A DNA stretch of 64,000 bases from the NCBI GenBank assembly GCA_947176385.1, contig CAMWQN010000002.1, positions 8,245-72,244 of the forward strand. Direction: 5' to 3'. Below, in pieces: positions 722-63,849 of this stretch. The notes beneath the pieces are model-generated. The model worked only from the letters and a program-made list of their open reading frames with translations, did not search any database and was not told the origin of the DNA. Numbering within the stretch: the stretch's first letter is position 1; each line of letters opens with the position of its first letter. The translations under genes and the position numbers were made by a program. The stretch comes from an uncultured Rickettsiales bacterium (GTDB lineage Bacteria; Pseudomonadota; Alphaproteobacteria; Rs-D84).

Positions 722-739
722 TTCCATTGAACCAAGCAT

Positions 740-971
740 GGATGACTGGGTTCGGGACCTGAAAAATCCCATATAGAGACGATGCGGGTAATTACCATCA
801 TCGTAATCCGACACTACGTCGGTGCATTATTGCGCCGTTGTTTTATGAACCCGACTGTATTCCGGTCGGGGGTCTGTGATTATAAAACAGGACACGTCCA
901 AAGGTCACAGGGGTCATTTCTCTATATGATTTTTTCAATCCCCGACCGCCGGTTTTCATGGCGGTTTTTTT
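740..971 (+). promoter_or_regulatory. Structured 5' leader L1 with terminator/antiterminator architecture
   Basis: P1 is TGAAAAA (760-766) paired with TTTTTCA (931-937). Hairpin X1:X' is CCCGAC (850-855) with GGTCGGGGG (864-872). X2 CCCCGACC (940-947) overlaps the terminator ACCGCC-N9-GGCGGT plus T-run (945-971). Confidence 0.6.
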
Positions 972-1003
972 AGTAATCAATTTACAAACGGGGGAATAAT
1001 AAA

Positions 1004-3752: not shown

Positions 3753-3784
3753 TCATATTGCAACGGGAAACCGGCGCATGGGTG

Positions 3785-3912
3785 TAAGAACCCACAAACG
3801 AAAATATTTACTCCACTTTATCGGTTGGAGGGCTGTGATATATCTAAATAAGCAGCACTATACGTTTGTAGTTCTTAACCTCCAGCCGTTTGGTTTTTAC
3901 CAGACGGTTTTT
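3785..3912 (+). promoter_or_regulatory. Structured 5' leader C1 upstream of an HTH gene
   Basis: P1 is TAAGAAC (3785-3791) paired with GTTCTTA (3871-3877). X' is GGTTGGAGG (3823-3831). X2 CCTCCAGCC (3879-3887) overlaps the terminator CCGTTTGG-N6-CCAGACGG plus T-run (3886-3912). Confidence 0.55.
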
Positions 3913-3943
3913 GTTTAATCAAAAAAAAGATGGAGATAAAGAA

Positions 3944-4270
3944 ATGACACTAACAATCAATGCACGAACAATCGGATTCGCCCTGCAACGTGCACGACAC
4001 AGTACATCAATATTGTCAGACGATGTGGCACAATTGCTGAAAATATCACGCGCTGAATTAACCCTCTTTGAAAATGGCGAGGTTGAAATTCCCCCACACA
4101 TCCTTGAATCACTGTTTGCATTGGGCTTAATAACAATGCACACACGTTCCAGAATACGGGACTATAACCGCATGGCACGACAATGGCGACATATGCATAA
4201 CCGCGCAATTGATTTGCATAATAAACTGCAAAAAATTACCGACGCCACCAGCCCAATATTAAAACAATAA
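3944..4270 (+). CDS. Small XRE-like helix-turn-helix protein
   Basis: Start chosen at the ATG with GGAG RBS; the ORF track begins at 3890. HTH-like segment is ILSDDVAQLLKISRAELTLFENGEVEIP. Confidence 0.6.
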   Translation: MTLTINARTIGFALQRARHSTSILSDDVAQLLKISRAELTLFENGEVEIPPHILESLFALGLITMHTRSRIRDYNRMARQWRHMHNRAIDLHNKLQKITDATSPILKQ

Positions 4271-21884: not shown

Positions 21885-22580
21885 TTATTCATAATAGCAA
21901 CGGCTGCCTGCCGGAACAATCTGATATACACCTGTAACATCATAACCTTGACTTTCGGTTAAATAGCAGCCTTGGATTGTTTCATTTGCCCCAGGGTCTG
22001 ATTCCCCTGCTTTTGTGGTGGCACTCATTGGACACTGCGTACATCCCGTCATTCCCATTGCACCAAAACCCTCAATATAATTTTCCTTAATCGCGGAACT
22101 GGAACCATAAAAACCTGCAGCGCAACGATGTTTTGAACGTTTTTCCCACGTACAGGTACTGGTATTACATTCGGTCCACGTATTTGTCTGATATCCATTC
22201 CAAGAATCTTTCCAGGCATCCTCGTCATACTCAATTTCTGAATTTGGGTCACATGTCTTTGCCACACTGCACGGTTGGCATACATATACACCACCATTTC
22301 TATTGCTGCACCCCATTGCCACAAAATCTGGGTCCAACGTCAGGATATAGCCATCTTCGCACATATGACATATCTGAAATTTTCCGGCTTTACCAGTTGA
22401 TTTATTTATATAGCACAACGAATACGGAAACATATACTGTTTACAATGTGCAATATTCTGTGCGGGTTCTGCAATTGATGCACACGTTTCGTTATCAGAT
22501 GGCGCCATTCCGCATTGTGCATATGCTAATTCGGTCGTTAAAAATGTTGACATTGTAACGATTAAGAGTTTTTTATTCAT
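21885..22580 (-). CDS. Small secreted cysteine-rich protein, paralogue of 1004-1699 and 40216-40890
   Basis: Signal peptide present. The shared C-terminal module is RCAAGFYG..GCTQCP..GCYL..D.TG.Y..C.YE. Confidence 0.8.
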   Translation of the reverse strand: MNKKLLIVTMSTFLTTELAYAQCGMAPSDNETCASIAEPAQNIAHCKQYMFPYSLCYINKSTGKAGKFQICHMCEDGYILTLDPDFVAMGCSNRNGGVYVCQPCSVAKTCDPNSEIEYDEDAWKDSWNGYQTNTWTECNTSTCTWEKRSKHRCAAGFYGSSSAIKENYIEGFGAMGMTGCTQCPMSATTKAGESDPGANETIQGCYLTESQGYDVTGVYQIVPAGSRCYYE

Positions 22581-22812
22581 TATTCAATCTCCTGCTGTTG
22601 TAAAAACAAAACCACCATTTTTGGTGGTCAGGAGGTTGATGACAATTACAGGAATTGTGTTGCGTATTGGATATTTCGCAAACCCTCCTGACCCTGGGTC
22701 AGGAGTTTGTTTTTCGTCTGAACATCAAAACAGGCGCAATACGCGCCACAAGAATCCATTCTGACGCCTGTATAGAGGTCATCACACCCCATCAACGGAA
22801 TCCCCGTTGACA
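22581..22812 (-). promoter_or_regulatory. Structured 5' leader L2, homologous to 40891-41131
   Basis: See findings for detail. Elements are P1 TGATGAC/GTCATCA, the X1:X' hairpin, and X2 overlapping the terminator ACCACC-N6-GGTGGT plus U-tract. Confidence 0.65.
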
Positions 22813-22818
22813 TTATTT

Positions 22819-23095: not shown

Positions 23096-25858
23096 TTAGA
23101 ATTTGTAATTTACCCCTATATTTAATTCCATATTTGAATAGTCTGATGCTGTTCCATATTTTGCAGATAAATAACCATCAAAAGCCCTACCCAAAGTGAC
23201 TGATAGCCCGCATTCCAATTGAGCGACATTGAAGTCTTCGACTGATTTTATATCGCCAATATCACTTATGTTCACATTATTCCCTTTGGTTGATGTAATC
23301 AAATATGAAGGTCTGATGAATAAATCTATTGCTCCTAATGATTGTGAAAAAGTAATACCAAAATCTGCCAGAATCTGATTTATATTATCATACTCAACCG
23401 TTCGTCCATAGACATCGGTCAAACTATCCAAGGAGAGATTTATATATGTTATGCCAGCCACAGGAGCAAATTTAAAGCCAGTCCCAACATCAATTAAATA
23501 TTGTGTTTTAAGCATTATGCCTGTTTGCGTCCCGGAAAAATCTGTCATGAATCCATCATCTGTTTTGACCTCAGACTGTAATAATCCACCATAAACCCCA
23601 GCAAAAACATTAAAGTTTTTAGGATTATAACGCATATAGCCACCAAATATTTGGCTGTGACCGTCTATCCAACTTTCTAAATCGGCATGAATTTCTTTGG
23701 CTTTACCAGAGAAAGAATGTTTAGCCTCTCGTATTGAACCCATTACTCCCATAGTCCAATTGTTGCCCAGCGATTTGTTGTATCCGAAATCACCCCCGAA
23801 TACCTTTGAATCCATTTCTGCAATCGTATCATTCTTTATTTGGGCAAAAACAGGTGTTATCCATATATTGCTGTTTTTCGGTACATAAAATGCGCGATTC
23901 ATTGAATTATGCGTTTGATCTAACATTGCGCTTTGCATGGCGGCATATGCCACTATTTCTGGATAAGAACGTACAATGTGCGGTAAATCTGGCTCAATAT
24001 CATTATTATCGTCATTATTATCATTATTGTCATTAAAGTCGCCATCATAATCAGGATTTTTGATATTATTCATTTCCAATGCCCAGGTTTTGGCGCTTCC
24101 ATCATAGAAATTCACATCATACATATATGGGCTGCCGAATACGCGAAATACGCTGAAAGAATTGTCATTTCCCTGACCAGTAGCCGTCGCAAACACAATA
24201 TCCTGTTTGCCACGAATATCCGTATCATCTAATGCATGGACCACAAGCTTTGTTTGCCCCGTAACATCCCCATCTATATTTAGAATATCAGCCGTCATAT
24301 CGGCTGGATTTACATTCAGATGAATATAGGAATTGCTTTGCGTAATCAATGCACCCAGACGAACACTTTCAATATACGTGTTTGCCATATCAAATGTGGC
24401 GTTATTCAATGTCATAATTGGGTATTTATCGTTTGACAGGAATTGTCCTTTGCCATATATGCCATTATCAAATTTCATGACGGCATTATTTATATTTATG
24501 TTACCCGCGTTAATAACAAAATTGTTGATATATAACGCCCCTGTTCCATCACCACTGATATTAATATCATATGGGTTCGCGCCATCTATGTTGTCATTAA
24601 AAGTATACGAACCCATATTTTGCAAATCAAAGTTTAATGCCTTACCATTCGTACCGCCCATATATATGGCATTATAATTAACACCATTTTTATCAATTAT
24701 ATGATTTCCACTGAACTTGTAATTATTATTATCGACACGAAATGATATGTTATTTTCCGAATAAATCGCACCACCACATGCATCGCCATTTGCGGAATTC
24801 GCGTAATTGTTAATGAAATTGCCGGATATTCTGTCTATTTGTCCCAATGTATAAATTGCACCACCCATTGCCTGGGATTCTCCGACCGCATAGTTATTGA
24901 TAAAATCCGCCTGGATATTGCTTAGTACCGTTGATGTGCCGGGCAGGATGCTATAAAACATCGCACCACCGCTGGCATGTGATTTAGAAACAGCATGATT
25001 GTCGATAAAATTTCCTGTAATATCAGATAATTTATATTGTTCATCATTTGCATCTTGAACTATATAAATTGCGCCACCGGTAGCCGCTTGGTCTGCATTA
25101 ACCGAATTGCTGATAAAATCTGCATTTATTTTTCCTGGAACCCCATTAACATATAATGCACCACCACGCGCGTCCCATGTCGCATTGATATAATTTGCAA
25201 TAAAGTTTGCATTTATGCTGGTTTGTATTTCATAAGTCTTATCATTTGTTCCGTTATAAATCGCACCACCATATCCGGATTTTGAGCCTGATATATAATT
25301 CCCTATGAAATTTCCAGAAATATGCTCTATTTCACCTCGGTCACCATTGCTTCCACGGGCACTGTAAATTGCCCCACCCATTGCATAATTACTTGCAGTC
25401 ATAATTCCATTATTAATAAAATCCCCATATAATTCCCGAATAAGGCTGGTATTATGTAACGCACCACCGTCAACCGAGCTATTTATTTCATGGGACGTAA
25501 TTTTGTTTGATATAAAATCCATGTATATTTTGTTTTCCCATGTGGAAACCTGTGTGGTCTTATCTGTGGTATTACGAACATATCCAATCATTTTTCCCAT
25601 TATCGGTGTAATGTTCGCGCCAACCGACGAAACCGAATAGTTCCAGTTTTGGTCAACAATGCCATCATTGGTTTCCATATATGTGGTTATGTTACCAGGT
25701 GATGATGTTTGTTGAAAATTCATTTCATATCCACTGGGGATTGATGATTGTCCGTTCGCATATAAATAGTCCAATGTAGGCGTATAATTTTCAAAATCAA
25801 ATGCCCCAAAAGCACTGTTAACAGATAAAATAAGCGGTAATATAAATATTTTTTGCAT
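23096..25858 (-). CDS. Autotransporter with polymorphic-membrane-protein (Pmp)-type repeats
   Basis: Signal peptide present. Seven alternating FxxN / GGA[ILM] repeats (for example GNFIGNY..YGGAIYNG). C-terminal beta-barrel region ends in ..GVNYKF. Confidence 0.85.
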   Translation of the reverse strand: MQKIFILPLILSVNSAFGAFDFENYTPTLDYLYANGQSSIPSGYEMNFQQTSSPGNITTYMETNDGIVDQNWNYSVSSVGANITPIMGKMIGYVRNTTDKTTQVSTWENKIYMDFISNKITSHEINSSVDGGALHNTSLIRELYGDFINNGIMTASNYAMGGAIYSARGSNGDRGEIEHISGNFIGNYISGSKSGYGGAIYNGTNDKTYEIQTSINANFIANYINATWDARGGALYVNGVPGKINADFISNSVNADQAATGGAIYIVQDANDEQYKLSDITGNFIDNHAVSKSHASGGAMFYSILPGTSTVLSNIQADFINNYAVGESQAMGGAIYTLGQIDRISGNFINNYANSANGDACGGAIYSENNISFRVDNNNYKFSGNHIIDKNGVNYNAIYMGGTNGKALNFDLQNMGSYTFNDNIDGANPYDINISGDGTGALYINNFVINAGNININNAVMKFDNGIYGKGQFLSNDKYPIMTLNNATFDMANTYIESVRLGALITQSNSYIHLNVNPADMTADILNIDGDVTGQTKLVVHALDDTDIRGKQDIVFATATGQGNDNSFSVFRVFGSPYMYDVNFYDGSAKTWALEMNNIKNPDYDGDFNDNNDNNDDNNDIEPDLPHIVRSYPEIVAYAAMQSAMLDQTHNSMNRAFYVPKNSNIWITPVFAQIKNDTIAEMDSKVFGGDFGYNKSLGNNWTMGVMGSIREAKHSFSGKAKEIHADLESWIDGHSQIFGGYMRYNPKNFNVFAGVYGGLLQSEVKTDDGFMTDFSGTQTGIMLKTQYLIDVGTGFKFAPVAGITYINLSLDSLTDVYGRTVEYDNINQILADFGITFSQSLGAIDLFIRPSYLITSTKGNNVNISDIGDIKSVEDFNVAQLECGLSVTLGRAFDGYLSAKYGTASDYSNMELNIGVNYKF

Positions 25859-26118
25859 TGCGATACCCCCATGTATAAAAAAAGACCGTCATTGGATGAC
25901 GGTCGGGGAGTTCACAAATCATTCTGTTATTGATTCCATTGGTCTTTCGGCGAACCGTATTATATAACCAACAGCCCCCCGACCAGTATATTTGGTCAGG
26001 GATAAATAACGATGCAAAAACAACAGAATGTCGGATTAACGACGCTTCTAAGATTTGCACCGAACAGAATAGACCTGTGAAAGTCCCGAACACGTTTCCC
26101 AACGAGTTCACAAAAAAT
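25859..26118 (-). promoter_or_regulatory. Structured 5' leader L3, homologous to 36753-37020
   Basis: P1 is TTCACA/TGTGAA. X1:X' is CCCTGACCA with TGGTCGGGGGG. X2 CTCCCCGACC overlaps the terminator GACCGTCAT-N3-ATGACGGTC plus U-tract. Confidence 0.65.
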
Positions 26119-26162: not shown

Positions 26163-26192
26163 CAAAAAACAAATCCGCCAATTGGCGGACTT
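26163..26192 (-). terminator. Additional intrinsic terminator inside the long upstream region of the Pmp-like gene
   Basis: The minus strand reads AAGTCCGCC-aatt-GGCGGATTTGTTTTTTG. Confidence 0.55.
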
Positions 26193-26533
26193 TAAATCAA
26201 TGGTTAGTTAAGTGGTTTGAGATATGGACTATCCATAAAATGCGGTCTTGTCGCACGTGCGCCAGCCAAATAATCCATACAGTCCAATTCATACAGTTTG
26301 ATATTCACTTCTACGAATTTTAAATTTGATATATATAGCATATTTTTTGAATCAAACAAGTACGACCATTGTTTTTTTATTTGGCTGATAGATACGATGC
26401 TTGAATTTTATTCTGTCCAATCCATTTCATTATCCACATGTTCTGGGAATAGTGGGATTGGCGCAGTTTCTGGTTTGTCGTCAATAATATAGCACCATGA
26501 AAAAAGTAATTTAATTATAATCCATAACGTGAT

Positions 26534-32605: not shown

Positions 32606-32746
32606 TCGACACAAAGCGTCTATGGTGAAACTGTAACAAGCCGACAGCATTACATTTGTCCCACCAGTGTCCCACGGCACACAAAAATAAAATCCGCCGA
32701 AGCGGATTTTTATCATACAACCAGTTGATTTTACTGATTAAATTCT

Positions 32747-32865
32747 TGGTTGGGACAGCTGATTCCCTCGGACTAACATCCTGCGGGGCAACCGTGACGG
32801 CTCGATTGTGCTTTGCTTATCTCGCCTACTTGTTGTCGAACCTTGGTTCTCACCTCATTACCCCA
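32747..32865 (-). other. 119-nt tRNA-Gln-related tRNA-like element of uncertain status (pseudo-tRNA or ncRNA)
   Basis: The 5' end TGGGGTA can pair with the 3' end TGTCCCA (including G-U pairs) and is followed by ACCA. It contains a GGTTCGAC motif. The 3' 20 nt match the tRNA-Gln 3' end. No valid T-arm or anticodon arm is present. It is followed by its own terminator at 32683-32712. Confidence 0.3.
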
Positions 32866-32904: not shown

Positions 32905-32978
32905 TGGTTGGGGCAGCTGGATTCGAACCAACACTGACGGAGTCAGAGTCCGGAGTTCTACCGTTAAACTATGCCCCA
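32905..32978 (-). tRNA. tRNA-Gln (anticodon CUG)
   Basis: 74 nt. Acceptor is TGGGGCA/TGCCCCA, D-arm GTTT/GAAC, anticodon loop CUCUGAC, T-loop TTCGAAT, and the CCA is encoded. Confidence 0.85.
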
Positions 32979-34787: not shown

Positions 34788-36752
34788 TCAATCAATATCC
34801 ATATTATACACAGAATACACACTTCCATTATATTCAACATTCAACGCCTTTTTTCTGGATTCTGGTATCATATCACCATATAACACATGATTTCCATATT
34901 GTACTGACAAACTGGGGTGCGTGCGCCAGTCATTATGCAACCATACGGAATATTGTCCAAATCGCATAACCCGACCACAATCAGTCAAACTGTCGGCGCC
35001 ACGCCCATACCCGATTGTCATTAAATTATCCGGACACTTGTTACGTTTACCACTGTTACCATAATTTGTATAATTTATATCATTCCAATACCCAGGTCCA
35101 ACATTCGCGCACTGCGTCGCACGTGCCGTTGCCAAATACGTACCCGCATCACACTTTATCTGACATTCATTAATCGACTGCGGTGCTGTATTATCAGGTG
35201 CACGGTCAGCATAATAATCCGGACAATCTTGACAAGAATTCCCAGACGCATACTGTCCCATCGGACATACGATTTTGCCATCAATACACACAAAATCAGC
35301 TGGACAAACCGTACACACATCACCATCACGAAAATATCCGTCATTACACCGCCAGGGGCAATCGTTACCATCAGGACTGCCTGCACCAATATAAATTGCA
35401 TTTTCCGGTGCATTTGTACATGCTTTATTATACTTAAACCGCATATACTCCCCTAAATGTACAGCATTCGCCAGATATCGACCGACGGTATCTGTCTGAA
35501 CCCAGTAAATATCAGAGCTCCAATATCTATCTCCTTGCCATGGCAAATCTTTAGTATATACGCCATCAGGTGTTTCAAACAACGCCCCCCCTATCCTACA
35601 ATTGGCAGCGTTTGTAATAAGCCCACTAACAGAATATGTAGTCACCCTTAAATTGTCAGCATTAATCAGCCTGTCCTCAGATGGCAATACAGATTCCAGT
35701 ACACCAGCATCAAATTCAGGACACCGAAACATTGTATTATTATTGCAATAATTGGCACCAGTGCACACAGAACACATATTGCCATTCAACCAATATCCAT
35801 CAAAACAATTAATTTGTGTGCTGCCGGCGGGACAAGTTGAATTCTGCGGACAGACATCACACCGATTGACATTCTTATAAAATCCTGAAACACAATCAAA
35901 ATCCGTCACAGATCTGCACGTTGAATTTTCCACAGGACACATTTCGCATACGGCACCATTATCAAAAAAGCCCGGATTACAATTTGGTGGCATACCAGAA
36001 TCGCCCGACGCATACGATAGACATTGACCATCTGAATGCCAGAACAACCCATCCGGACATTTTTGTTCCTTGTGTCCGGGACATACAACACCATCGGGAC
36101 ATGGAACACATTCTGCACCCATTTTATAAAATCCGGGGGCGCAATATTGCATATAATTGCTAATTGTCGCGATACCATCTGGACAATAATATTCACCCGG
36201 ACACTGAAAACAATGGTATGAACTTTTATAATAACCTTCGATACACGTAACAGATGAAATCGTTGAACCAGCGGGACAATGCAATTCAGCCCCACAGTCC
36301 ATACAATACGTACCATTCCAATTATAATACAAATACCCAGCACCACAACTGATTAATTTTTCACCATCACAAACATGCCCAGCACAAGACCGACACATAA
36401 ACCCATCACGAAACCAGCCGTCATCACAATGAAATGTATCGGTCCCACCCACGCATGTTGCATTATTAACACATTGTGAACAAACACCGTTATATAAATA
36501 TGTTCCAGGCATGCACGAAAATTCTGTGGGTCCTGTACATGTGCTGTTTGGTGGGCATGCCAGACATTGGTTATTACCATCTGCATAAAATCCGTCATTA
36601 CAAGAATATGTTTCACCATCACATGTTGCGTTATACATACAGTTGACACAATTACCACCAGATAAATACTGATTCACATCACATGTTGCAGCATTGGCAA
36701 CACCACCTGCGCCCACCAACAACAGTACAACAGAAACCAACAGTCGTATCAT
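34788..36752 (-). CDS. Secreted protein made of furin/VSP-like cysteine-rich repeats
   Basis: Start placed at MIRLLVSVVLLLVGAGGVANA with AAGGGGA RBS. The ORF-track start at 36782 falls inside the leader terminator. Repeats have the form C..G.Y...G.C..CP.NSTC throughout. Confidence 0.8.
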   Translation of the reverse strand: MIRLLVSVVLLLVGAGGVANAATCDVNQYLSGGNCVNCMYNATCDGETYSCNDGFYADGNNQCLACPPNSTCTGPTEFSCMPGTYLYNGVCSQCVNNATCVGGTDTFHCDDGWFRDGFMCRSCAGHVCDGEKLISCGAGYLYYNWNGTYCMDCGAELHCPAGSTISSVTCIEGYYKSSYHCFQCPGEYYCPDGIATISNYMQYCAPGFYKMGAECVPCPDGVVCPGHKEQKCPDGLFWHSDGQCLSYASGDSGMPPNCNPGFFDNGAVCEMCPVENSTCRSVTDFDCVSGFYKNVNRCDVCPQNSTCPAGSTQINCFDGYWLNGNMCSVCTGANYCNNNTMFRCPEFDAGVLESVLPSEDRLINADNLRVTTYSVSGLITNAANCRIGGALFETPDGVYTKDLPWQGDRYWSSDIYWVQTDTVGRYLANAVHLGEYMRFKYNKACTNAPENAIYIGAGSPDGNDCPWRCNDGYFRDGDVCTVCPADFVCIDGKIVCPMGQYASGNSCQDCPDYYADRAPDNTAPQSINECQIKCDAGTYLATARATQCANVGPGYWNDINYTNYGNSGKRNKCPDNLMTIGYGRGADSLTDCGRVMRFGQYSVWLHNDWRTHPSLSVQYGNHVLYGDMIPESRKKALNVEYNGSVYSVYNMDID

Positions 36753-37020
36753 CAAAATCCCCTTGTAAAAAAAGACCGTCATCAGAACACGACGGTCGGG
36801 GTGGTTCGAAAATCATCTTATCATTGATTCTGTCAGTCTTTCGGCGGAACCGTGTTTTATAACCGACAGCCCCCCGACTGAGATAGTCAGGGATAAATAA
36901 CGATACAAAGTCACAGGAAATTATTGGAATAACGATGACCTATGCTTTTGCACCGGATAAGAATAGCCTTCGACAGCCCCGAACCTGTGTCCCCACAAGT
37001 TCGTTTAAATAATAACATAA
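36753..37020 (-). promoter_or_regulatory. Structured 5' leader L4, homologous to 25859-26118
   Basis: P1 is TCGAA/TTCGA. X1:X' is CCCTGACT with AGTCGGGGGG. X2 CCACCCCGACC overlaps the terminator GACCGTC-N10-GACGGTC plus U-tract. Confidence 0.65.
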
Positions 37021-37104
37021 ATCATGATGGTCGTCCACCACATTTGTGTGGAGATAGATTTTTTAACGACAATGCGTTTTTCATGCGATGGACAACCATA
37101 AGAA

Positions 37105-37260
37105 CAAAAAAATGCCACCTAAAAAAACACAGGCGGCTGGAGGTTGAGACCAATAATCAAGTAGTATTGTCGGTTTATTCAATATATTCACCGAACTCCA
37201 ACCAGTGTTGGATTACAATATCCGCAATGCGGATACGACTTGATATGGGGTCTCAATCCC
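37105..37260 (-). promoter_or_regulatory. Structured leader module C3, stacked upstream of L4
   Basis: P1 is TTGAGACC (37256->37249) paired with GGTCTCAA (37151->37144). The hairpin is CCAAC-ACTG-GTTGG. X2 CCTCCAGCC (37143->37135) overlaps the terminator GCCGCCT-N10-AGGTGGC plus U-tract. Confidence 0.55.
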
Positions 37261-37374
37261 AGCGCAACAAATCGTTGCACCGGCTGCATTATACTACAAC
37301 TTTTTTATTTCGCTACAATTTTATTAAAAAAAGTTCCGATAAATATCGGAACTTTTTTTACGCATTTGTAATTT

Positions 37375-40215: not shown

Positions 40216-40890
40216 TTATGGTTTAATAGGTTCCAATTCAACAATTTCACCGCCGGTTAACCCATTGGAATATTCACAATTTTCTGTATATGTACCACTG
40301 CCAGTTGTATCTGAGAAAGATGTTCCTGCAGGCAAATAGCAACTTGTGACATATTTGCTGCCGGCTGCACTGGTACCGTATGTGCCACTGCCAGATTGTG
40401 GACATCTGGTACAACCTGATGTTCCATTGGTACTGGAACCATAATATCCTGCGGCGCAACGATATGTAGTTGATATTACAGCACAACCACCTGTACATGT
40501 GCATGAACGTCTTGCCTGTTGTTCGTATCCAGCGGTTCCAGTTGCAGTGAAACCGATATCACTGGCGCATGTACCGCATGATATGCAACATTGATACACC
40601 AGTTCATATGTAGTGTTACACGAATTGCTGAGTTCTGATATTGATACTTGTTTTCTTTCTGTGCCACTTGGGCATGATGTACAACTTTGAAAACGTATTA
40701 CATTTCCCGAACCACTTTTATAACATACATTTGTATGGTTGCCTTCCCGACATGTTGTTATTGCCTCCATTGGGGCAGCAGTACATGTTGTTGACGTACA
40801 CACGCCATTATCGAGTGAAAGTACAGCATTGGCTGGTTTTTCTATTGGCATGATTGTTATCATTGCCAATATAATTAGTTTATGTTTCAT
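40216..40890 (-). CDS. Small secreted cysteine-rich protein, paralogue of 1004-1699 and 21885-22580
   Basis: The shared C-terminal module is YRCAAGYYGSS..GCTRCP...SCYLPAGTSFSDTTGSGTYTENCEYS. Confidence 0.8.
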   Translation of the reverse strand: MKHKLIILAMITIMPIEKPANAVLSLDNGVCTSTTCTAAPMEAITTCREGNHTNVCYKSGSGNVIRFQSCTSCPSGTERKQVSISELSNSCNTTYELVYQCCISCGTCASDIGFTATGTAGYEQQARRSCTCTGGCAVISTTYRCAAGYYGSSTNGTSGCTRCPQSGSGTYGTSAAGSKYVTSCYLPAGTSFSDTTGSGTYTENCEYSNGLTGGEIVELEPIKP

Positions 40891-41131
40891 TATTCAATCT
40901 CCTGTTTTTTCGTAATGAAAAACCACCCAAAATTCAGGTGGTCAGGAGGTTGATGACAATCCATAGAATTGTGTGCTTATTCGTTATATTCGCAACCCTC
41001 CTGCCCACAAATTGGTCAGGAGTTGTTTTTCCGTCGTAACAGTAAAATTGGCGCAAAATGCGCGCCCCTATAAACATATTCCGACGCTATGGCAGAGGTC
41101 ATCACACCTCATCATTGGAATTCCCAATGAC
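40891..41131 (-). promoter_or_regulatory. Structured 5' leader L5, homologous to 22581-22812
   Basis: Same helices as L2 with compensatory changes. The terminator is ACCACC-N9-GGTGGT plus U-tract (40922-40942). Confidence 0.65.
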
Positions 41132-41137
41132 AAAATT

Positions 41138-49143: not shown

Positions 49144-52100
49144 ATGAAAAAATTATTATCAGTACTATTCGCAATAATTATCACCCTGCCCGCGTTGGCA
49201 ATGGATGTCAGTATCACTATTATTGATGAAAACAATGAACCATTGATTGGTGCCTCTGTCATCGTGGCAAACACACAAAATGGTGTAGTCACCGATACAG
49301 CGGGTCACGCAACTTTACGAAATATCCCAGACGACTCATCTATACGTATCAGCTATGTTGGATACCAAGAACAAACATTGCCAGCACAATCAACAATGTC
49401 TGTCAAAATGGAACCAACCACTCTGAATTTAGAAAGTGTAGTAGTAGTCGCATGTTCCCGTGCCAACGGTATAAAAACAACTAAGTGCGAAAACTGTGCC
49501 GATCCTGACAAATGTACCATCGACAGCTGCTCGGGTACATGTGTTGTACAGGAATGCCATGAACCATGCTACAAGAAAAAAGGTAACAAATGCGAAATGC
49601 AAAGTGTTACTGGTGGTACATTTACATTCATAAACAATCAATGCGGATTAACCTGTTTATCAATTGCAGGTTATGCCCAAGATCCAAAGAATCAATGGAA
49701 ATGTACACAAGATTGCACATCATCCATTACCGACCCAAATGTAAAGAAGGCACAATACAAAGGAAGCATAACACCAAACAACCTAAAATGCGAAATTATT
49801 GATTGCAAGGGTAAATATCATCCATCTGATGACAAACAAAGTTGCATCCCAGACCAAGGCGATTGCACCCCTGAACAATTGCAAGCCGTGCATGCCACCA
49901 CCGGATATTTAATCACCAGGACCAATAAATGTGTTCCAAAGGAATGTATCCAACCACAATACAGACCAGATGGCAAAGGCGATGACCGCGTATGCGTTGA
50001 CATGGTTGGCACAGCATGCAATGTAAAAAATGCGACCAGTGCAAAATTCGCAGTCCGTGATAATAAATTGATATGTGTTGTTGATACATGCGACACTGCC
50101 AATGGTTATGTAAAATCTGCTGATAGCTTATCATGCATCAAAGACTGCCTGAGTACTATCAAGGAAAAAGTTCCACTGGCAAGCGCTGCCGAATACGACA
50201 GCACTGGTAAGTGTGTAATTAAAAAATGCGATAAAAAGAATGGTAAAAAATACATCCCCAGTGATGATGGTCAAGATTGTGAAGAAACCGAACGTGATTG
50301 CAATAAACAAACCGACAGCCAAATCTGGCCGGAACATGCAACCGCCGCATTATACAAGAAATCAAAAACAGGTGGCACTGCAAAATGCGTTGCAACAGAT
50401 TGTGAACCAGGATACAAACCAGTCAAAGGACAATGTGTCAATCAGGTCGGACAACCATGTAAAGTATCACATGCCAAAGAAGCCAAATTTGAACTGCGTG
50501 ACAATAAATTGGTATGCGTAGTCGTATCATGCGACACCGCCAAGGGTTACACAAAAACCGCGGACGGTTTGGAATGTATCAAAGACTGTCTGTCAACAGC
50601 GAAAAACAAAGAACCCCTGGCAACCAAGGCTGAGTTCGACAGCAACGGTAAATGCATAATCAAAAAGTGTGATAAAAAGGATGGTAAAAAATACATCCCC
50701 AGTGATGACGGTCAAAAATGTGAAGAAACCGAACGTGACTGCAATAAACAAACCGACAGCAACATATGGCCGGAACACGCAACCGCCGCAGCATACAAAA
50801 AATCAAAAACGGGTGGTGCTGCAAAATGTGTCGCAACAGAATGTGAAGACGGCTATGACGTTGAGGGTGGTAAATGCACATCTGTAAATGATTCAGACTG
50901 TGATAAAAAACCTGAAAATTCAAAAAAATCACATCGTTACTATGACGTCAGCCAGCAACAAACATTGTGCATCATCGACGAATGCAAGGATGGATATAAA
51001 ATCAGCAACGACATGCTGTCATGCATACTGGAATCTGCATTAAGCGAAGAAGATGCAAAAAAACGTATGGATGAATTAAAAGAAAACGCCCTGAAAATGA
51101 AAGAAAAAGAACAGTCTATTGAAAATAAACTGTTGGGCGCCGCTGGTATGGCAACGGTTGGTATTGGCGGAATGAATATCGCATCTGCCCTGTCTGAACA
51201 AAGCGCTGACCGCAAAGCAGAAGATGATATGAAAGCATATCTGGCAACATTCCGCTGTGACTATGGTCAGGGTCGCAATATCCTGGGTGGTGAAACAAAT
51301 ATTCAATTACCAGGTGCCAGCGAATTGATGCAATACACAACCGAATATAAACAATTGGCATTAAACCTGAAATCTGACAAAGCCGCATTGGGAATGATGC
51401 CGGGCATTGAATCAGAAACCGTATTTGATTCTGCAACAACTGGTCTTTATGATGATGTTGGTATCGGCACACAGAAAGGTGCATTTACATCATTGTCACG
51501 TGCCCTCTTGGATGAAAATGGCGCTGACGCCGCCGAATGGCAGGCAATGAAAGACGCCACCGCAAAAAAATTAAAGACCGGTGTAATTGTTGCTGGTGCG
51601 GGCGCATTGGGAACATTGGCGGGCAACCTGGCTATCAATCATGGCAATGGTGACCAATCCGCTAATATAATGAACCAATACGAAGGCTTACAGGAAGATA
51701 TTCCAGACATCACACTGCCACGCATACCATGTTCTAATTTCCCAGATACAACTGGTGTTGGTTATGTACCAAACTGTGAATGCAAAACCCCAAATTCATA
51801 CTTTGATGAACAGACTCGCAAATGTGAACAATGCGGTACAAATGAACACGTCGAAAACAAACAATGCGTATGCAACGACGGCTTCCACCGTGATGCAAAC
51901 AGTGGCAACTGCATTGCAAATCAACCGGAACAAACCTGTCAGAATTTGCCAGCCGGCAGTGGCGCAACAGGTTCAGGCAATTTCCCAAATTGTGATTGCA
52001 AAGATCAAAATGCAACATTTGATAAACAATCATTGAAATGCAAATGCAAGGACGGATTTTCAAATCCAAATGGGGGTCAATGCCTGCAAATATGCGCAGG

Positions 52101-52854
52101 GTTACCTGGGGTCGATAACAGTCGGGCATCCAATTATAACGTGCCGCAGTGCCCATGTGAATACGATGGCGCAAAATTTGACCCGTCACAAAAAGCCTGC
52201 CTTTGCCCACAAGGTCAAACACCAGCCATTGAAAACGGTCAGAAAAAATGTATCACACCGTTAACAGGTACACAATGTGATACAATCCCTGGTGCAACAG
52301 GCACAATTGTTCCGAACTGCACATGCACTGACCCCAACAAACAATTTATCAAGAAACAAGGAAAATATGGCTGTCACTGCAAATCTGGTATGCGTGAAGA
52401 TGAATCTGGCAACTGCGTCAGTGGCAGTGATCCTGTATTCTCAGGTAACTTTAGCGCGAATGAAACATTTGACCTAGGCAAATCCGAAATCAGTGACAAC
52501 AGATGCACACAAATCATAAATAAAATTAAGACAGATTCTAGATATGATGCAAACATATCTGGCACATTATGTATCAGTGCAATCGGTCATACTGACACAA
52601 AATACTTCAAAAACACCCCTAAAAAAGAAGCAATCAATAAACAAAAGAATCAAGAACTGTCAAAAGACCGCGCTCAGGCAATGCATGATTGCATCAACAG
52701 AAATATCCGCAGTTTGTTCCCAAGAGCGACAGTCACCAGTCCAAATGTCGTCGGCAAGGGTTGGCAAGAATGCGTGGTACAAGACTTAGATAAAGATACC
52801 CCATCATGTCGCAGGGTAGAAGTAAAAATCCAACTGAACAGTTGCCATAACTAA
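49144..52854 (+). CDS. 1236-aa mosaic envelope protein: CarboxypepD_reg-like N-domain, Cys-rich repeats, coiled coil, glycine zippers, EGF/furin-like repeats, OmpA-like C-domain
   Basis: The N-terminal region is IIDENNEPLIGASVIVANTQNGVVTDTAGHATLRNIP..IRISYVGYQEQTL. The C-terminal region is AIGHTD..N.ELSKDRAQAM...CRRVEVKI. Confidence 0.8.
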   Translation: MKKLLSVLFAIIITLPALAMDVSITIIDENNEPLIGASVIVANTQNGVVTDTAGHATLRNIPDDSSIRISYVGYQEQTLPAQSTMSVKMEPTTLNLESVVVVACSRANGIKTTKCENCADPDKCTIDSCSGTCVVQECHEPCYKKKGNKCEMQSVTGGTFTFINNQCGLTCLSIAGYAQDPKNQWKCTQDCTSSITDPNVKKAQYKGSITPNNLKCEIIDCKGKYHPSDDKQSCIPDQGDCTPEQLQAVHATTGYLITRTNKCVPKECIQPQYRPDGKGDDRVCVDMVGTACNVKNATSAKFAVRDNKLICVVDTCDTANGYVKSADSLSCIKDCLSTIKEKVPLASAAEYDSTGKCVIKKCDKKNGKKYIPSDDGQDCEETERDCNKQTDSQIWPEHATAALYKKSKTGGTAKCVATDCEPGYKPVKGQCVNQVGQPCKVSHAKEAKFELRDNKLVCVVVSCDTAKGYTKTADGLECIKDCLSTAKNKEPLATKAEFDSNGKCIIKKCDKKDGKKYIPSDDGQKCEETERDCNKQTDSNIWPEHATAAAYKKSKTGGAAKCVATECEDGYDVEGGKCTSVNDSDCDKKPENSKKSHRYYDVSQQQTLCIIDECKDGYKISNDMLSCILESALSEEDAKKRMDELKENALKMKEKEQSIENKLLGAAGMATVGIGGMNIASALSEQSADRKAEDDMKAYLATFRCDYGQGRNILGGETNIQLPGASELMQYTTEYKQLALNLKSDKAALGMMPGIESETVFDSATTGLYDDVGIGTQKGAFTSLSRALLDENGADAAEWQAMKDATAKKLKTGVIVAGAGALGTLAGNLAINHGNGDQSANIMNQYEGLQEDIPDITLPRIPCSNFPDTTGVGYVPNCECKTPNSYFDEQTRKCEQCGTNEHVENKQCVCNDGFHRDANSGNCIANQPEQTCQNLPAGSGATGSGNFPNCDCKDQNATFDKQSLKCKCKDGFSNPNGGQCLQICAGLPGVDNSRASNYNVPQCPCEYDGAKFDPSQKACLCPQGQTPAIENGQKKCITPLTGTQCDTIPGATGTIVPNCTCTDPNKQFIKKQGKYGCHCKSGMREDESGNCVSGSDPVFSGNFSANETFDLGKSEISDNRCTQIINKIKTDSRYDANISGTLCISAIGHTDTKYFKNTPKKEAINKQKNQELSKDRAQAMHDCINRNIRSLFPRATVTSPNVVGKGWQECVVQDLDKDTPSCRRVEVKIQLNSCHN
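49993..50874 (+). repeat. Two tandem 441-bp (147-aa) intragenic repeats
   Basis: Unit 1 starts at CVDMVGTACNV (49993) and unit 2 at CVNQVGQPCKV (50434). Long stretches are near-identical at DNA level, for example around KKYIPSDDGQ.CEETERDCNKQTDS. Confidence 0.9.
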
Positions 52855-62381: not shown

Positions 62382-63011
62382 TTACCGCACATGTGCCGCA
62401 AACAATGCTGCGCGGAAAGTAGAAAAATAAGCACCACTGCGCACAAACCAGTCCGCCACACTGGATACAGCGCATTCTGGATAGCTATAATTGCCGTCAC
62501 CAACCCAGGATTTGCAATACAATTCGTATTTACCTGTTAATTTGTTTTTAACGATTATGTTGCCAACAACTGCTCTGCCCTTTTGGTTATATTTTGGATT
62601 GCTTATCGGATTACCATAGCCTTTGAATGATACACTATCTATTGTCATTGTTATGGATGCCGCAAATTCATACTGCTGACTGAATTTTGGTTCTCTTTCC
62701 ATCGCAGTCTTAAATTCTTTTACGTGCTCAGCATTTTCAACCTGACCGTCTATCGTGTAACCGTTATATTTATTTGTGTTCCACATGTTAGTTTCACAGT
62801 TGTAATATACAACGTTTGTATGACCAACTAAACGCTGTACAACAGCATCATTCAATTTTTCTGATGTCCCAGCTGATTTGACCTGTGGCGCTTTATCATC
62901 ATGTACCACAGTGGCACGCGATAAAATTTGCTGTTGCAATTCCCAATCCGCGGGGGACAACTTATAGCGAACACCATCAATGACTATATCTTTATTCTTT
63001 TTGTCTGCCAT
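62382..63011 (-). CDS. Hypothetical protein, tandem paralogue A
   Basis: Start placed at MADKKNKDIVIDGVRYKL; the ORF track begins at 63101. It is highly similar to 63202-63849 and has its own promoter and terminator. Confidence 0.65.
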   Translation of the reverse strand: MADKKNKDIVIDGVRYKLSPADWELQQQILSRATVVHDDKAPQVKSAGTSEKLNDAVVQRLVGHTNVVYYNCETNMWNTNKYNGYTIDGQVENAEHVKEFKTAMEREPKFSQQYEFAASITMTIDSVSFKGYGNPISNPKYNQKGRAVVGNIIVKNKLTGKYELYCKSWVGDGNYSYPECAVSSVADWFVRSGAYFSTFRAALFAAHVR

Positions 63012-63201
63012 GATATTTCTCTTGTTTTTTATTGACATACAAGATAGCAATATTTCATATTTTGTCAAATGATTTATAAAAACACAGGATTGCCACGTCA
63101 TGGCTTACACCATTCCTCGCAATGATAATGGGGATACACTCTGGACACTGAACTCTATAAAAAAATCCCCCAACTGGGGGATTTTTTATTGCACGCATAG
63201 A

Positions 63202-63849
63202 TTACCGCGTATGCGCCGCCAACAATGCGGCACGGAAAACGGAATACCTGGCACCGTAGTCCGCAAACCCGAACGCCCCGCTGCGGACAGCGCCGCGCGG
63301 ACTGAAGAAATCGTAAACGCCAACCCAGGATTTACAATACAATTCATATTTACCTGTTGCCTTGTTTTTAACAATTATGTTTCCAACAACCGCTTCACCA
63401 TTTTGGCTGTATTGTGGGTTGCTTATCATCTTAGCCCAGCCTGGGTAAAATGCCTTACCTATTGTCATTGTTACAGATGCTGCAAATTCATACTGTTGAT
63501 TGAATGCTGGAATGTTTTCCATCACAGACTTAAATTCTTTTACACGCTTGGTATCTGTGTCCTGACCGTTTATCGTATAGCCATTATACTTACTTGTGTT
63601 CCACACATTTGTTTCACAATTATAATACACAACGTTTATATGACCAACCAGGCAATTTACTACGATATCTGTCAGTTTCTCAGATATTACTATTACTTTT
63701 TCTGTCGCGACTGGTTTGATATCTGATTTAACAGGTGATGCTTTATCATTATTTACCACAATGGCACGCGATAAAATTTGCTGTTGCAATTCCCAATCCG
63801 CGGGGGACAACTTATAGCGAACACCATCAATAACTATATTTTTATCCAT
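63202..63849 (-). CDS. Hypothetical protein, tandem paralogue B
   Basis: MDKNIVIDGVRYKLSPADWELQQQILSRA... About 60 nt of its 5' coding sequence are identical to paralogue A. Confidence 0.65.
   Translation of the reverse strand: MDKNIVIDGVRYKLSPADWELQQQILSRAIVVNNDKASPVKSDIKPVATEKVIVISEKLTDIVVNCLVGHINVVYYNCETNVWNTSKYNGYTINGQDTDTKRVKEFKSVMENIPAFNQQYEFAASVTMTIGKAFYPGWAKMISNPQYSQNGEAVVGNIIVKNKATGKYELYCKSWVGVYDFFSPRGAVRSGAFGFADYGARYSVFRAALLAAHTR

Follow-up and report, generated by a model that had tools for sequence, protein, structure and literature searches.

The window analysed here is a 64,000-nucleotide stretch of contig CAMWQN010000002.1 (assembly GCA_947176385.1) from an uncultured Rickettsiales bacterium of the order Rs-D84, a lineage for which genomes of approximately 0.75-1.0 Mb are given in the literature. 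On the minus strand of the window, a gene at 23096..25858 encodes a 920-aa Pmp-like autotransporter with a signal peptide, and its start codon (ATG, 25858-25856) is preceded by a GGGGG ribosome-binding site (RBS) at 25870-25866. The Pmp-like nature of this protein had been proposed in an earlier reading of the DNA made from the letters alone (the sequence-only reading); a match to the Pfam Autotransporter beta-domain (E = 2e-18) and repeated GGAIY/FxxN motifs in the translation, which are typical of Pmp-like passengers, bear it out. An exact-sequence look-up gave no record of this protein. The subject of this report is L3, the leader of the autotransporter gene, a structured RNA of approximately 235 nt on the minus strand (26112→25877) with a terminator at its 3′ end. 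The element is a new relative of the sRNA-Xcc1/c4-type leader family, larger in size and expanded on the chromosome; this RNA class is known but poorly understood. The sequence-only reading had taken L3 for a transcription attenuator, and the evidence described below supports that reading.

The strings named in the sequence-only reading were all recovered on the minus strand at the positions it had given. Its list of elements is correct in the parts that it named; the 5′ hairpin, the pairing between a G-run and X2, and the kinship with sRNA-Xcc1 and phage immunity RNAs had been missed. A sigma-70 promoter is predicted from the sequence on the same strand (TTGATT at 26145-26140, a 17-nt spacer, and TAGGAT at 26122-26117), which would place the transcription start near 26111; this promoter lies approximately 125 nt upstream of the X′ strand described below. 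At the equivalent position, other copies of the leader possess stronger extended -10 boxes, e.g., TGTTATAAT or TATTAT. The 5′ terminus of L3 forms the hairpin P0 (GAACTCGTT-GGGA-AACGTGTTC, 26088..26109) in the minimum free energy (MFE) fold, with a GNRA-type loop that is GGGA, GAGA or GAAA in most copies of class I, the classes being sequence classes of the X strands. The following G-run GGGA (G1, 26084..26087) is the partner of the CCC(C) of X2 in the RNAalifold consensus, forming helix P1. The 5′ strands of the long-range helices P2 (TTCACA, 26081-26076) and P2b occupy 26063..26081 and find their partner at 25911-25928, and the P3 arm (CGGTGCAAA...TTTGCATCG, 26010..26062) with its inner hairpins comes next in the MFE fold.

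The three strands on which regulation would depend are X1, X′ and X2. X1 (TCCCTGACCA, 25993..26002), proposed to be an anti-antiterminator strand, forms the 5′ side of the X1:X′ hairpin, and the X1-loop-X′ string CCCTGACCAAATATACTGGTCGGGGGG spans 26001-25975. X′ (TGGTCGGGGGG, 25975..25985) is G-rich and Shine-Dalgarno-like, and is able to pair with either X1 or X2. It is followed by the P5 hairpin (25936..25974, MFE fold), with an inner hairpin (CGG-UUCG-CCG) and an internal loop that is conserved (UAUAUAAUA / AAA); this region corresponds to the 39-nt conserved block of the sequence-only reading (25980-25942). The 3′ strands of P2b and P2 (25911..25935, with TGTGAA at 25916-25911) lead to X2 (CTCCCCGACC, 25901..25910), of which the CCC(C) pairs with G1 and the whole strand is complementary to X′. 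The last four bases of X2, GACC, are the start of the stem of an intrinsic terminator, GACCGTCAT-CCA-ATGACGGTC plus T7 (25877..25904), and the overlap between X2 and the 5′ arm of the terminator is thus as the sequence-only reading described it. The terminator has a 9-bp stem and a T7 tract, and the ATG lies 18 nt beyond the U-tract. A terminator scan lists 25904-25884 for L3 and 36797-36774 for a second leader of the same class (hereafter, the sister leader; 36751..37005, minus strand), which lies upstream of a gene for a 654-aa Cys-rich secreted protein (34788-36752).

The two leaders had been judged by eye to be about 70 percent alignable. In a global alignment of the leaders only (the stretch 37005→36767 of the sister leader, which had been delimited as 36753-37020), the identity with L3 is 73.9%, versus 47.1 ± 1.8% for shuffles, and folding gave the same structure for both, with MFE z-scores of -5.7 for L3 and -5.0 for the sister leader and none of 200 shuffles as good. 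The motif GTCGGGGGGCTGTYGGTTATA occurs in the window in these two leaders only, with 0 occurrences expected by chance, and no significant BLASTP similarity was found between the proteins encoded behind them.

For a wider sample, a conserved-core pattern was scanned over one genome per species, and 12 contigs matched, all of them metagenome-assembled genomes (MAGs) of Candidatus Enterousia or other gut Alphaproteobacteria. Each match is a leader of approximately 250 nt directly upstream of an open reading frame (ORF). A covariance model, R1, was built from 14 leader sequences out of 13 genomes, and RNAalifold on a MAFFT alignment of 14 sequences yielded a consensus fold comprising P0, P1, P2, P2b, P3, the X1:X′ hairpin, P5 and the terminator. 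In this alignment, 93.4% of the cells are paired, as compared with at most 50% for slid partners; double changes occur at 24 of 50 pairs (81 cells), and none of 500 shuffles matches any of the five measures. The compensatory changes fall mostly in P0 (6 of 7 pairs), P2 (5 of 6), P2b (5 of 5) and P5 (4 of 7 outer pairs). The long-range helix that the sequence-only reading called P1, which is P2/P2b in the present nomenclature, therefore holds, with compensatory changes at 10 of its 11 pairs. The present P1 (alignment columns 32-34 with 235-237) is 100% paired and shows one double change, G-C to A-U, in locus L038. The P3 helix is 98.7% paired, with changes mainly from G-C to G-U. The terminator stem covaries as well, and the terminator is kept in nearly all copies.

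The most informative variation concerns the three X strands, which occur in at least five sequence classes over 20 members with both complementarities, X1:X′ and X′:X2, preserved by coordinated changes; the pairing scheme of the sequence-only reading is upheld in this respect. The combinations of X1, X′ and X2 include CCCUGAC, GUCGGGGGG and CCCCGAC; GCCUGACC, GGUCGGGCG and CGCCCGACC; CUCCUGACC, GGUCAGGAG and CUCCUGACC; CCCAAC, GUUGGGG and CCCCAAC; and CUCCAACC, GGUUGGAG and CUCCAACC or CCUCCAGCC. Among the 20 members, X1:X′ is 90% paired and X′:X2 94.4% paired, each with 15 double-change cells; for both helices none of 500 shuffles does as well and slid controls reach at most 59%. Changes in the GACC end of X2 are matched in the terminator's 3′ arm (GGUC or GGUU), as would be expected if X′ and the terminator compete for X2. 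In class I, G-U pairs in X1:X′ usually stand where X′:X2 has G-C, implying that X2 can in principle displace X1.

Searches with R1 and a metagenome scan in which X1 and X′ were left unconstrained enlarged the family to approximately 36 copies, 8 of them in the 64-kb window and about 28 in Candidatus Enterousia and related gut Alphaproteobacteria. R1 detected two more full-length copies in the loci of the 14-sequence set, a divergent full-length member in L046 (3387-3576, 34.5 bits), and, in the window, a third class-I copy and five divergent full-length copies, the latter with lower scores. The metagenome scan contributed another 16 full-length members, from the human gut and other sources, in which X′ is mostly GUCGGGGAG with matching X1 and X2; L076, found in this way, behaves similarly (CCCCAAC/GGUUGGGG). 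In the window, the sister leader scores 212.9 bits, and the third class-I copy (726..989, plus strand; 113.3 bits, E = 3e-36) lies upstream of a gene for a 231-aa secreted protein (1004-1699). Two class-II copies on the minus strand are evidently the earlier leaders of the sequence-only reading, with "a different conserved core": 22587..22814 (44.4 bits, full-length; X1 CTCCTGACC, X′ GGTCAGGAG, X2 CTCCTGACC), before a 231-aa secreted protein (21885-22580), and 40898..41135 (33.1 bits), before a 224-aa secreted protein (40216-40890). On the plus strand, a class-IV copy (CTCCAACC / GGTTGGAGG / CTCCAACC) at 15832..16038 (24.3 bits, E = 1.5e-6) precedes a 78-aa ORF (16045-16281), and a class-V copy at 3755..3930 (20.7 bits, E = 2.4e-5) precedes a gene for a 108-aa HTH-like protein (3944-4270) with a weak Pfam match to HTH_31. 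The eighth copy, an orphan of class V (37091..37283, minus strand; 17.4 bits, E = 3e-4), adjoins the promoter of the sister leader on its upstream side and has P2 (TTGAGACC/GGTCTCAA), X1/X′/X2 and a terminator.

Approximately 34 of the 36 copies have a co-oriented ORF that begins no more than about 60 nt downstream. Random intergenic placement, which the sequence-only reading had named as the finding that would speak against a regulatory leader, was thus not seen. The remaining two (the window orphan and L046:3018-3272, minus strand) have a promoter, the full fold and a terminator with no ORF behind them, and may be free-standing regulatory RNAs or remnants. Since unrelated genes follow the leader both in the window and in at least 12 other species, it is the leader, not the coding sequence, that is the shared unit, as had been claimed, and we infer co-regulation of the genes that bear it. 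The further claim that these genes encode surface proteins applies to most of the ORFs, whose products are secreted proteins, lipoproteins or proteins of the outer membrane, among them autotransporters, an outer-membrane beta-barrel protein, lipobox lipoproteins, and Cys-rich and other signal-peptide proteins. It does not extend to the two orphans or to the small HTH-like proteins, the T5orf172-like protein and a probable DNA methyltransferase, the last recognised by eye from its N-terminus VAKITFIDLFAGIG; a BppL_N-like protein is also among the cargo.

These data bear directly on the possibility that the copies merely represent a dispersed, inert repeat or miniature mobile elements with a terminator-like palindrome. 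Such an origin would account for the many copies per genome, and relatives of Xcc1 are carried by phages, integrons and plasmids. However, the copies are at most 74% identical and yet keep their pairing by compensatory changes; about 34 of 36 point in the same direction as the downstream gene and keep a fixed distance to its start codon; a promoter-like box accompanies each copy; the same position is kept across at least 12 species; and no terminal inverted repeats or target duplications came to light. This explanation is effectively refuted by covariation and position, and we regard it as very improbable. Equally hard to credit is leader-peptide attenuation or a small protein gene. A 97-codon ORF (25818..26111, minus strand) is open across the entire leader, and an AUG stands at the hairpin-2 position in 8 of 16 copies; however, indels break the frame in the sister leader, neither start codon nor frame is conserved across copies, and the substitution pattern is that of paired RNA. 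No conserved upstream ORF or leader peptide was found across the copies. Two further candidates were rejected for the X′ strand: a true translation start, as there is no conserved start codon at the proper spacing and a GGT/GGTG indel breaks the frame, and CsrA-type GGA sites, as class-I X′ lacks GGA on inspection.

The RBSs of the downstream genes are themselves unusual. In the window, a GGGGG or GGGG Shine-Dalgarno sequence is found only before genes behind class-I leaders (e.g., 25866-25870 and 990-1003), and the other genes have AGGA, GGAG or AAGG. The Shine-Dalgarno sequence of class-I genes, GGGG(G) or GGGAG, resembles X′ and is complementary to X1 and X2. In the other classes, the RBS follows the X′ class in three of the four copies that have a gene (RBS CAGGAG with X′ CAGGAG, GUUGGGG with GUUGGGG, and UGGAG with UUGGAG); the exception is the class-IV copy at 15832, where the RBS ACGGGGGAU does not match the X′ GGUUGGAGG. 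The cross-pairing energies of cognate pairs are only modestly better. A second, translational layer of control may exist, judging from these sequence resemblances.

Regarding the origin of the leader, only two tRNAs in the window pass the gathering score of Rfam 15. Below that threshold, every leader matches sRNA-Xcc1 (RF02221) end-to-end in its 3′ half, with 24.5-48.8 bits versus a gathering score of 53; L3 scores 36.0, the sister leader 24.5 and the orthologous leaders 28.6-48.8 bits, whereas genuine phage sRNA-Xcc1 loci score 56-79.7 bits. P5 aligns with hairpin 1 of the Rfam model (AUACAAUAC...GAA). When viral contigs were searched with a pattern for the X1/X′/X2 topology, 37 loci were returned, nearly all of them GC-rich chance matches; the only real one, L019, scores 56 bits as a genuine Xcc1 and is followed by a Bro-N/P22-type antirepressor gene, and R1 aligns it full-length. 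BLAST revealed further genuine members in Aggregatibacter phage S1249, Mannheimia phage 1152AP2 and Acinetobacter phage 4316, with scores of 62.8-79.7 bits and with an ant or KilA-N gene shortly downstream in every case; in S1249 (L050), two Xcc1 units stand in tandem (2010-2096 and 2244-2327). Folded from their promoters, the Mannheimia and Acinetobacter phage leaders contain P1/P2, P2b, P3, X1:X′, P5 and the terminator as in L3, with z of about -5. R1 with default filters did not detect the phage loci L050-L052, and their shared architecture rests on the folds of L051 and L052 together with sequence inspection. A leader of approximately 200 nt thus seems to be represented in the Rfam sRNA-Xcc1 model by its 3′ 87 nt alone. 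BLASTN of the leader against plasmids gave no match. According to the literature, Xcc1 also precedes symE in the integron cassettes of Xanthomonas and, in APSE phages, an ORF6N gene.

The phage loci have one further feature: the hairpin-2 loop has two complements, the P2b strand upstream and the RBS of ant, and this triplet differs in each phage (for example, ACUCUAAGG / CCUUAGAGU / ACUCUAAGGA). Pairing of this c4 type between the hairpin-2 loop and the RBS was rejected for L3 and most copies, where it is absent; it is found only in L038:530 and, weakly, in two others. In L038:530-768 (minus strand), the hairpin-2 region pairs with the Shine-Dalgarno sequence, start codon and first codons of the T5orf172-like gene at -19.8 versus -8.8 ± 1.8 kcal/mol, so that this copy, by its sequence, seems to retain the phage-type translational arm. 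In L3, the segment 25911..25935 can form only a weak local hairpin 2 (AAUCA...UGAUU) of 0 to -3 kcal/mol as an alternative to P2b and P2; since shuffles equal it, hairpin 2 was rejected as a stable element of an alternative fold, although it is formable. A tRNA-like RCCA tail after X2, which would make an RNase P substrate as in c4, is not supported on inspection: RCCA/GUCA occurs in only about half of the copies, and its bases also belong to the terminator stem.

The kinship raises the question of whether L3 is primarily a gene for a trans-acting small RNA (sRNA), a homologue of sRNA-Xcc1 with a constitutive terminator and leaky read-through as at the IsrK locus, whose main product would be a terminated or processed RNA acting on other targets. 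Rfam classes sRNA-Xcc1 as an sRNA gene, with an 88-nt species on Northern blots in Xanthomonas and a mechanism that is unknown, and the IsrK locus offers a precedent for dual output, sRNA and mRNA, from one locus. The two orphan copies, with a promoter and terminator and no ORF, and a strongly favoured OFF fold would also suit such a gene. On the other hand, in about 34 of 36 copies the ORF begins only a few nucleotides downstream, too close to leave space for a separate promoter, these ORFs carry unusual X′-like RBSs (GGGG, GGGAG), and the overlap of X2 with the terminator and its covariation with X′ would be hard to explain if only termination mattered. We consider a chiefly trans-acting role unlikely, though worth keeping in view; it is compatible with attenuation, and the locus may have both outputs.

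Considering these results together, L3 is probably the 5′ leader of the autotransporter mRNA that functions in cis as a default-OFF transcription attenuator. It has the features of such a device: a GC-rich hairpin and U-tract before the start codon, no room for a downstream promoter, an antiterminator helix (X′:X2) that shares bases with the terminator stem, and X1 as a competitor for X′. In the model, transcription would start about 8 nt upstream of the P0 hairpin, and the local helices P3, X1:X′ and P5 would form first as the RNA emerges. The late 3′ strands would then zip onto the early 5′ strands to form P2b, P2 and P1, the last between the G-run and the CCCC of X2. The GACC end of X2, left free, would nucleate the terminator, and RNA polymerase would halt 18 nt before the start codon. 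The 18-nt interval between the U-tract and the ATG is too short to hold another promoter, and expression of the gene would therefore depend entirely on read-through. For read-through, the competing helix X′:X2 would have to form and capture the four bases with which the terminator stem begins, and the formation of X′:X2 would in turn require that X1 be displaced and P1/P2 be kept open. The calculated energies favour termination: the natural fold of full L3 has -91.6 kcal/mol versus -72.4 with X′:X2 forced, and before the terminator 3′ arm is made the values are -78.0 and -65.6 kcal/mol. Because the terminator-permitting fold is far more stable and hairpin 2 is marginal, the default state would be OFF and read-through would need help.

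With respect to the nature of that help, a metabolite or second-messenger riboswitch was considered, in which the P0-P5 fold closed by P1/P2 would be the aptamer, the ligand would stabilise P1/P2 and thereby termination, and X′:X2 would form without ligand. The large multi-way junction with conserved unpaired stretches (CGUUAUUUAUCCC, UAUACAAUAC/GAAAG and GAAUCAAU), the GNRA loop on P0, which suggests a tertiary contact, and the classic three-strand layout of the expression platform are all in keeping with this idea, and surface-protein genes are typical cargo of c-di-GMP-type switches. Opposed to it are the lack of a match to any Rfam riboswitch family even at E <= 10, a non-metabolic cargo that includes HTH, methyltransferase and phage-like genes, the presence of 8 copies in 64 kb and of two orphans in the family, and the relatives among phage immunity RNAs. 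Moreover, the X classes vary with complementarity kept, which is the pattern of RNA-RNA specificity rather than of a ligand pocket, and the OFF fold is favoured by about 12-19 kcal/mol without ligand. A riboswitch is therefore rather improbable.

By analogy with P1 c4, P4 CI and IsrK, the trigger that we prefer for the attenuator is RNA: leader RNAs that have been terminated or processed would base-pair in trans with nascent leaders of their own class, at the X or P2b strands. An RNA input is favoured by the variable parts, which covary as specificity classes, by the nearest relatives, which are leader-derived antisense RNAs, and by the orphan copies, which could supply such an RNA. If so, the signal would be RNA dosage and not a metabolite, and the genes of one X class would be tied together. 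Both the switching of L3 between folds and its trigger are points that we infer.

Several observations weigh against default-OFF attenuation in cis. The promoter, the termination point and the processing of L3 are predictions, and in locus L049 the terminator is not obvious. The antiterminator fold trails the natural one by 12-19 kcal/mol, and its hairpin 2 is marginal; switching may be rare or dependent on a further factor. Three groups of columns in the 14-sequence alignment (X′, ATAYAAYAC and GAAAG) do not vary, since they were prescribed by the pattern used for the search, a bias that the metagenome set removes for X1 and X′, and the registers of the 20-member alignment (A5) were curated by hand. 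As X1 is nearly identical to X2, the three-way covariation may partly reflect duplication, and the evidence for the two helices, though good, is not independent. The RBS-blocking arm of the phage loci is absent from L3, where the hairpin-2 region pairs with the translation-initiation region at -8.2 kcal/mol versus -7.3 ± 2.7 kcal/mol for non-cognate combinations. Finally, the orphan copies fit a trans-acting role as well as a cis-acting one.

Other features of the window were recorded in passing. A perfect direct repeat of 41 nt (287-327 and 587-627, 300 nt apart) follows closely on the 3′ side of a tRNA gene (153-234) and holds the tRNA-3′-end-like GGTTCAGTCCGACCA; the leader copy at 726-989 comes immediately after it. 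An integrative element may have left this repeat as an att-type duplication. A 29-codon ORF (MNWTVWIIWLAHVRQDRILWIVHISNHLT) followed by a strong terminator lies at 26171-26290 (minus strand), between rnhB and the L3 promoter; it may encode a small membrane peptide, correspond to an sRNA or have no meaning. Near-identical palindromic terminators (AAATCCGCCAATTGGCGGATTT) are present at 15723, 26164, 59982, 62305 and 63156. A weak rsmX-like Rfam match at 32687-32796 (minus strand; 24.9 bits versus a gathering score of 56), which has a terminator and adjoins a tRNA (32908-32978), is probably due to chance or to an unrelated small RNA. Tandem paralogues at 62382-63101 and 63202-63849 have 78% DNA identity over 300 nt, and a 1236-aa ORF (49144-52854) contains a 441-nt internal repeat at 50004-50744.

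As for its significance, a new RNA of approximately 210 nt plus terminator, supported by covariation, joins the bacterial cis-regulators, and it does so in an uncultured, genome-reduced gut lineage. The leader is likely a major determinant of how Enterousia-type bacteria set their surface. One speculative scenario, to which we give little weight, is that these bacteria, with genomes below 1 Mb, have domesticated a phage-immunity leader of the Xcc1/c4/CI type into a genome-wide, RNA-only control that keeps tens of surface-protein genes OFF by default, with the variable strands (the X class and the gene-specific P2b) letting leader RNAs act in trans within a class. If this were the case, class-wide co-regulation would follow, possibly with a bistable ON/OFF surface repertoire resembling phase variation without protein regulators, and sRNA-Xcc1 would in general be the 3′ half of a cis-acting leader of approximately 200 nt instead of a free-standing trans sRNA. 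sRNA-Xcc1, treated for 15 years as a trans-acting virulence sRNA, appears here as part of a longer leader with c4/CI-like three-strand logic; its position before antirepressor genes is documented here in phages, and the symE placement in Xanthomonas comes from the literature only. The R1 model can define the regulon in any MAG. The element itself is of clear interest to specialists in RNA regulation and to students of genome-reduced symbionts.

Among known systems, sRNA-Xcc1 is the closest. The region of L3 from X′ to X2 aligns with the whole 87-nt model, including the closing stem (GGUCGGGG.../...CCCCGACC), hairpin 1 with its AUACAAUAC/GAA loop and the position of the second hairpin, and the genuine phage loci also have X1, P2, P2b, P3 and a terminator directly before a gene. 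The closing stem corresponds to X′:X2 and is supported by covariation in the leaders, whereas hairpin 2 is marginal there and competes with the strongly supported P2/P2b. The Enterousia leaders differ in that they score below the gathering threshold, hairpin 1 is longer, hairpin 2 is weak and the terminator overlaps X2. Their cargo consists of chromosomal surface-protein genes and not of ant, symE or ORF6N, there are many copies per genome, and the host belongs to Rs-D84. The Rfam entry, by comparison, models the 3′ 87 nt only and is labelled a trans-acting sRNA.

The complementarity of X′ to both X1 and X2, with three-way covariation, is a feature of the c4/CI/IsrK type. Like c4 (immI) of phages P1 and P7, L3 is a regulatory RNA inside the leader of the gene that it would control, with short segments that have complements on either side, upstream and downstream, in the same transcript and with covarying specificity classes, to which the heteroimmunity of P1 and P7 is a parallel. 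The genuine Xcc1 phage leaders share the P1 c4 design exactly, with the ant RBS as the downstream target; in contrast, the downstream strand X2 of L3 lies before a terminator and not on an RBS. Neither C4 (RF01695) nor isrK (RF01394) of Rfam matched the leader regions at E <= 10. In phage P4, as outlined in PMC4825925, seqB of the CI RNA is complementary to the upstream seqA and the downstream seqC and decides on premature termination in an untranslated leader; seqB, seqA and seqC would correspond to X′, X1 and X2, respectively. CI, however, is a processed trans factor in phage immunity, whereas the pairings of L3 are nested in one cis fold with an intrinsic terminator, and similarity between CI and the leader was not detected by sequence or covariance model. 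IsrK of the Gifsy-1 prophage resembles L3 as a terminator-ended leader sRNA with two conformations, upstream of an antirepressor module, from which read-through yields an mRNA; it differs in controlling orf45-anrP translation by trans pairing. Leader-derived RNAs that act on their own transcript are thus on record in the literature for IsrK, P4 CI and P1 c4. The trp-type attenuators and riboswitch platforms (1:2 / 2:3 / 3:4) have the same general layout of three strands and mutually exclusive helices, the last of which overlaps a terminator before the gene; L3 stands apart from them in having no leader peptide and in possessing an additional long-range P1/P2/P2b helix that would lock the OFF state.

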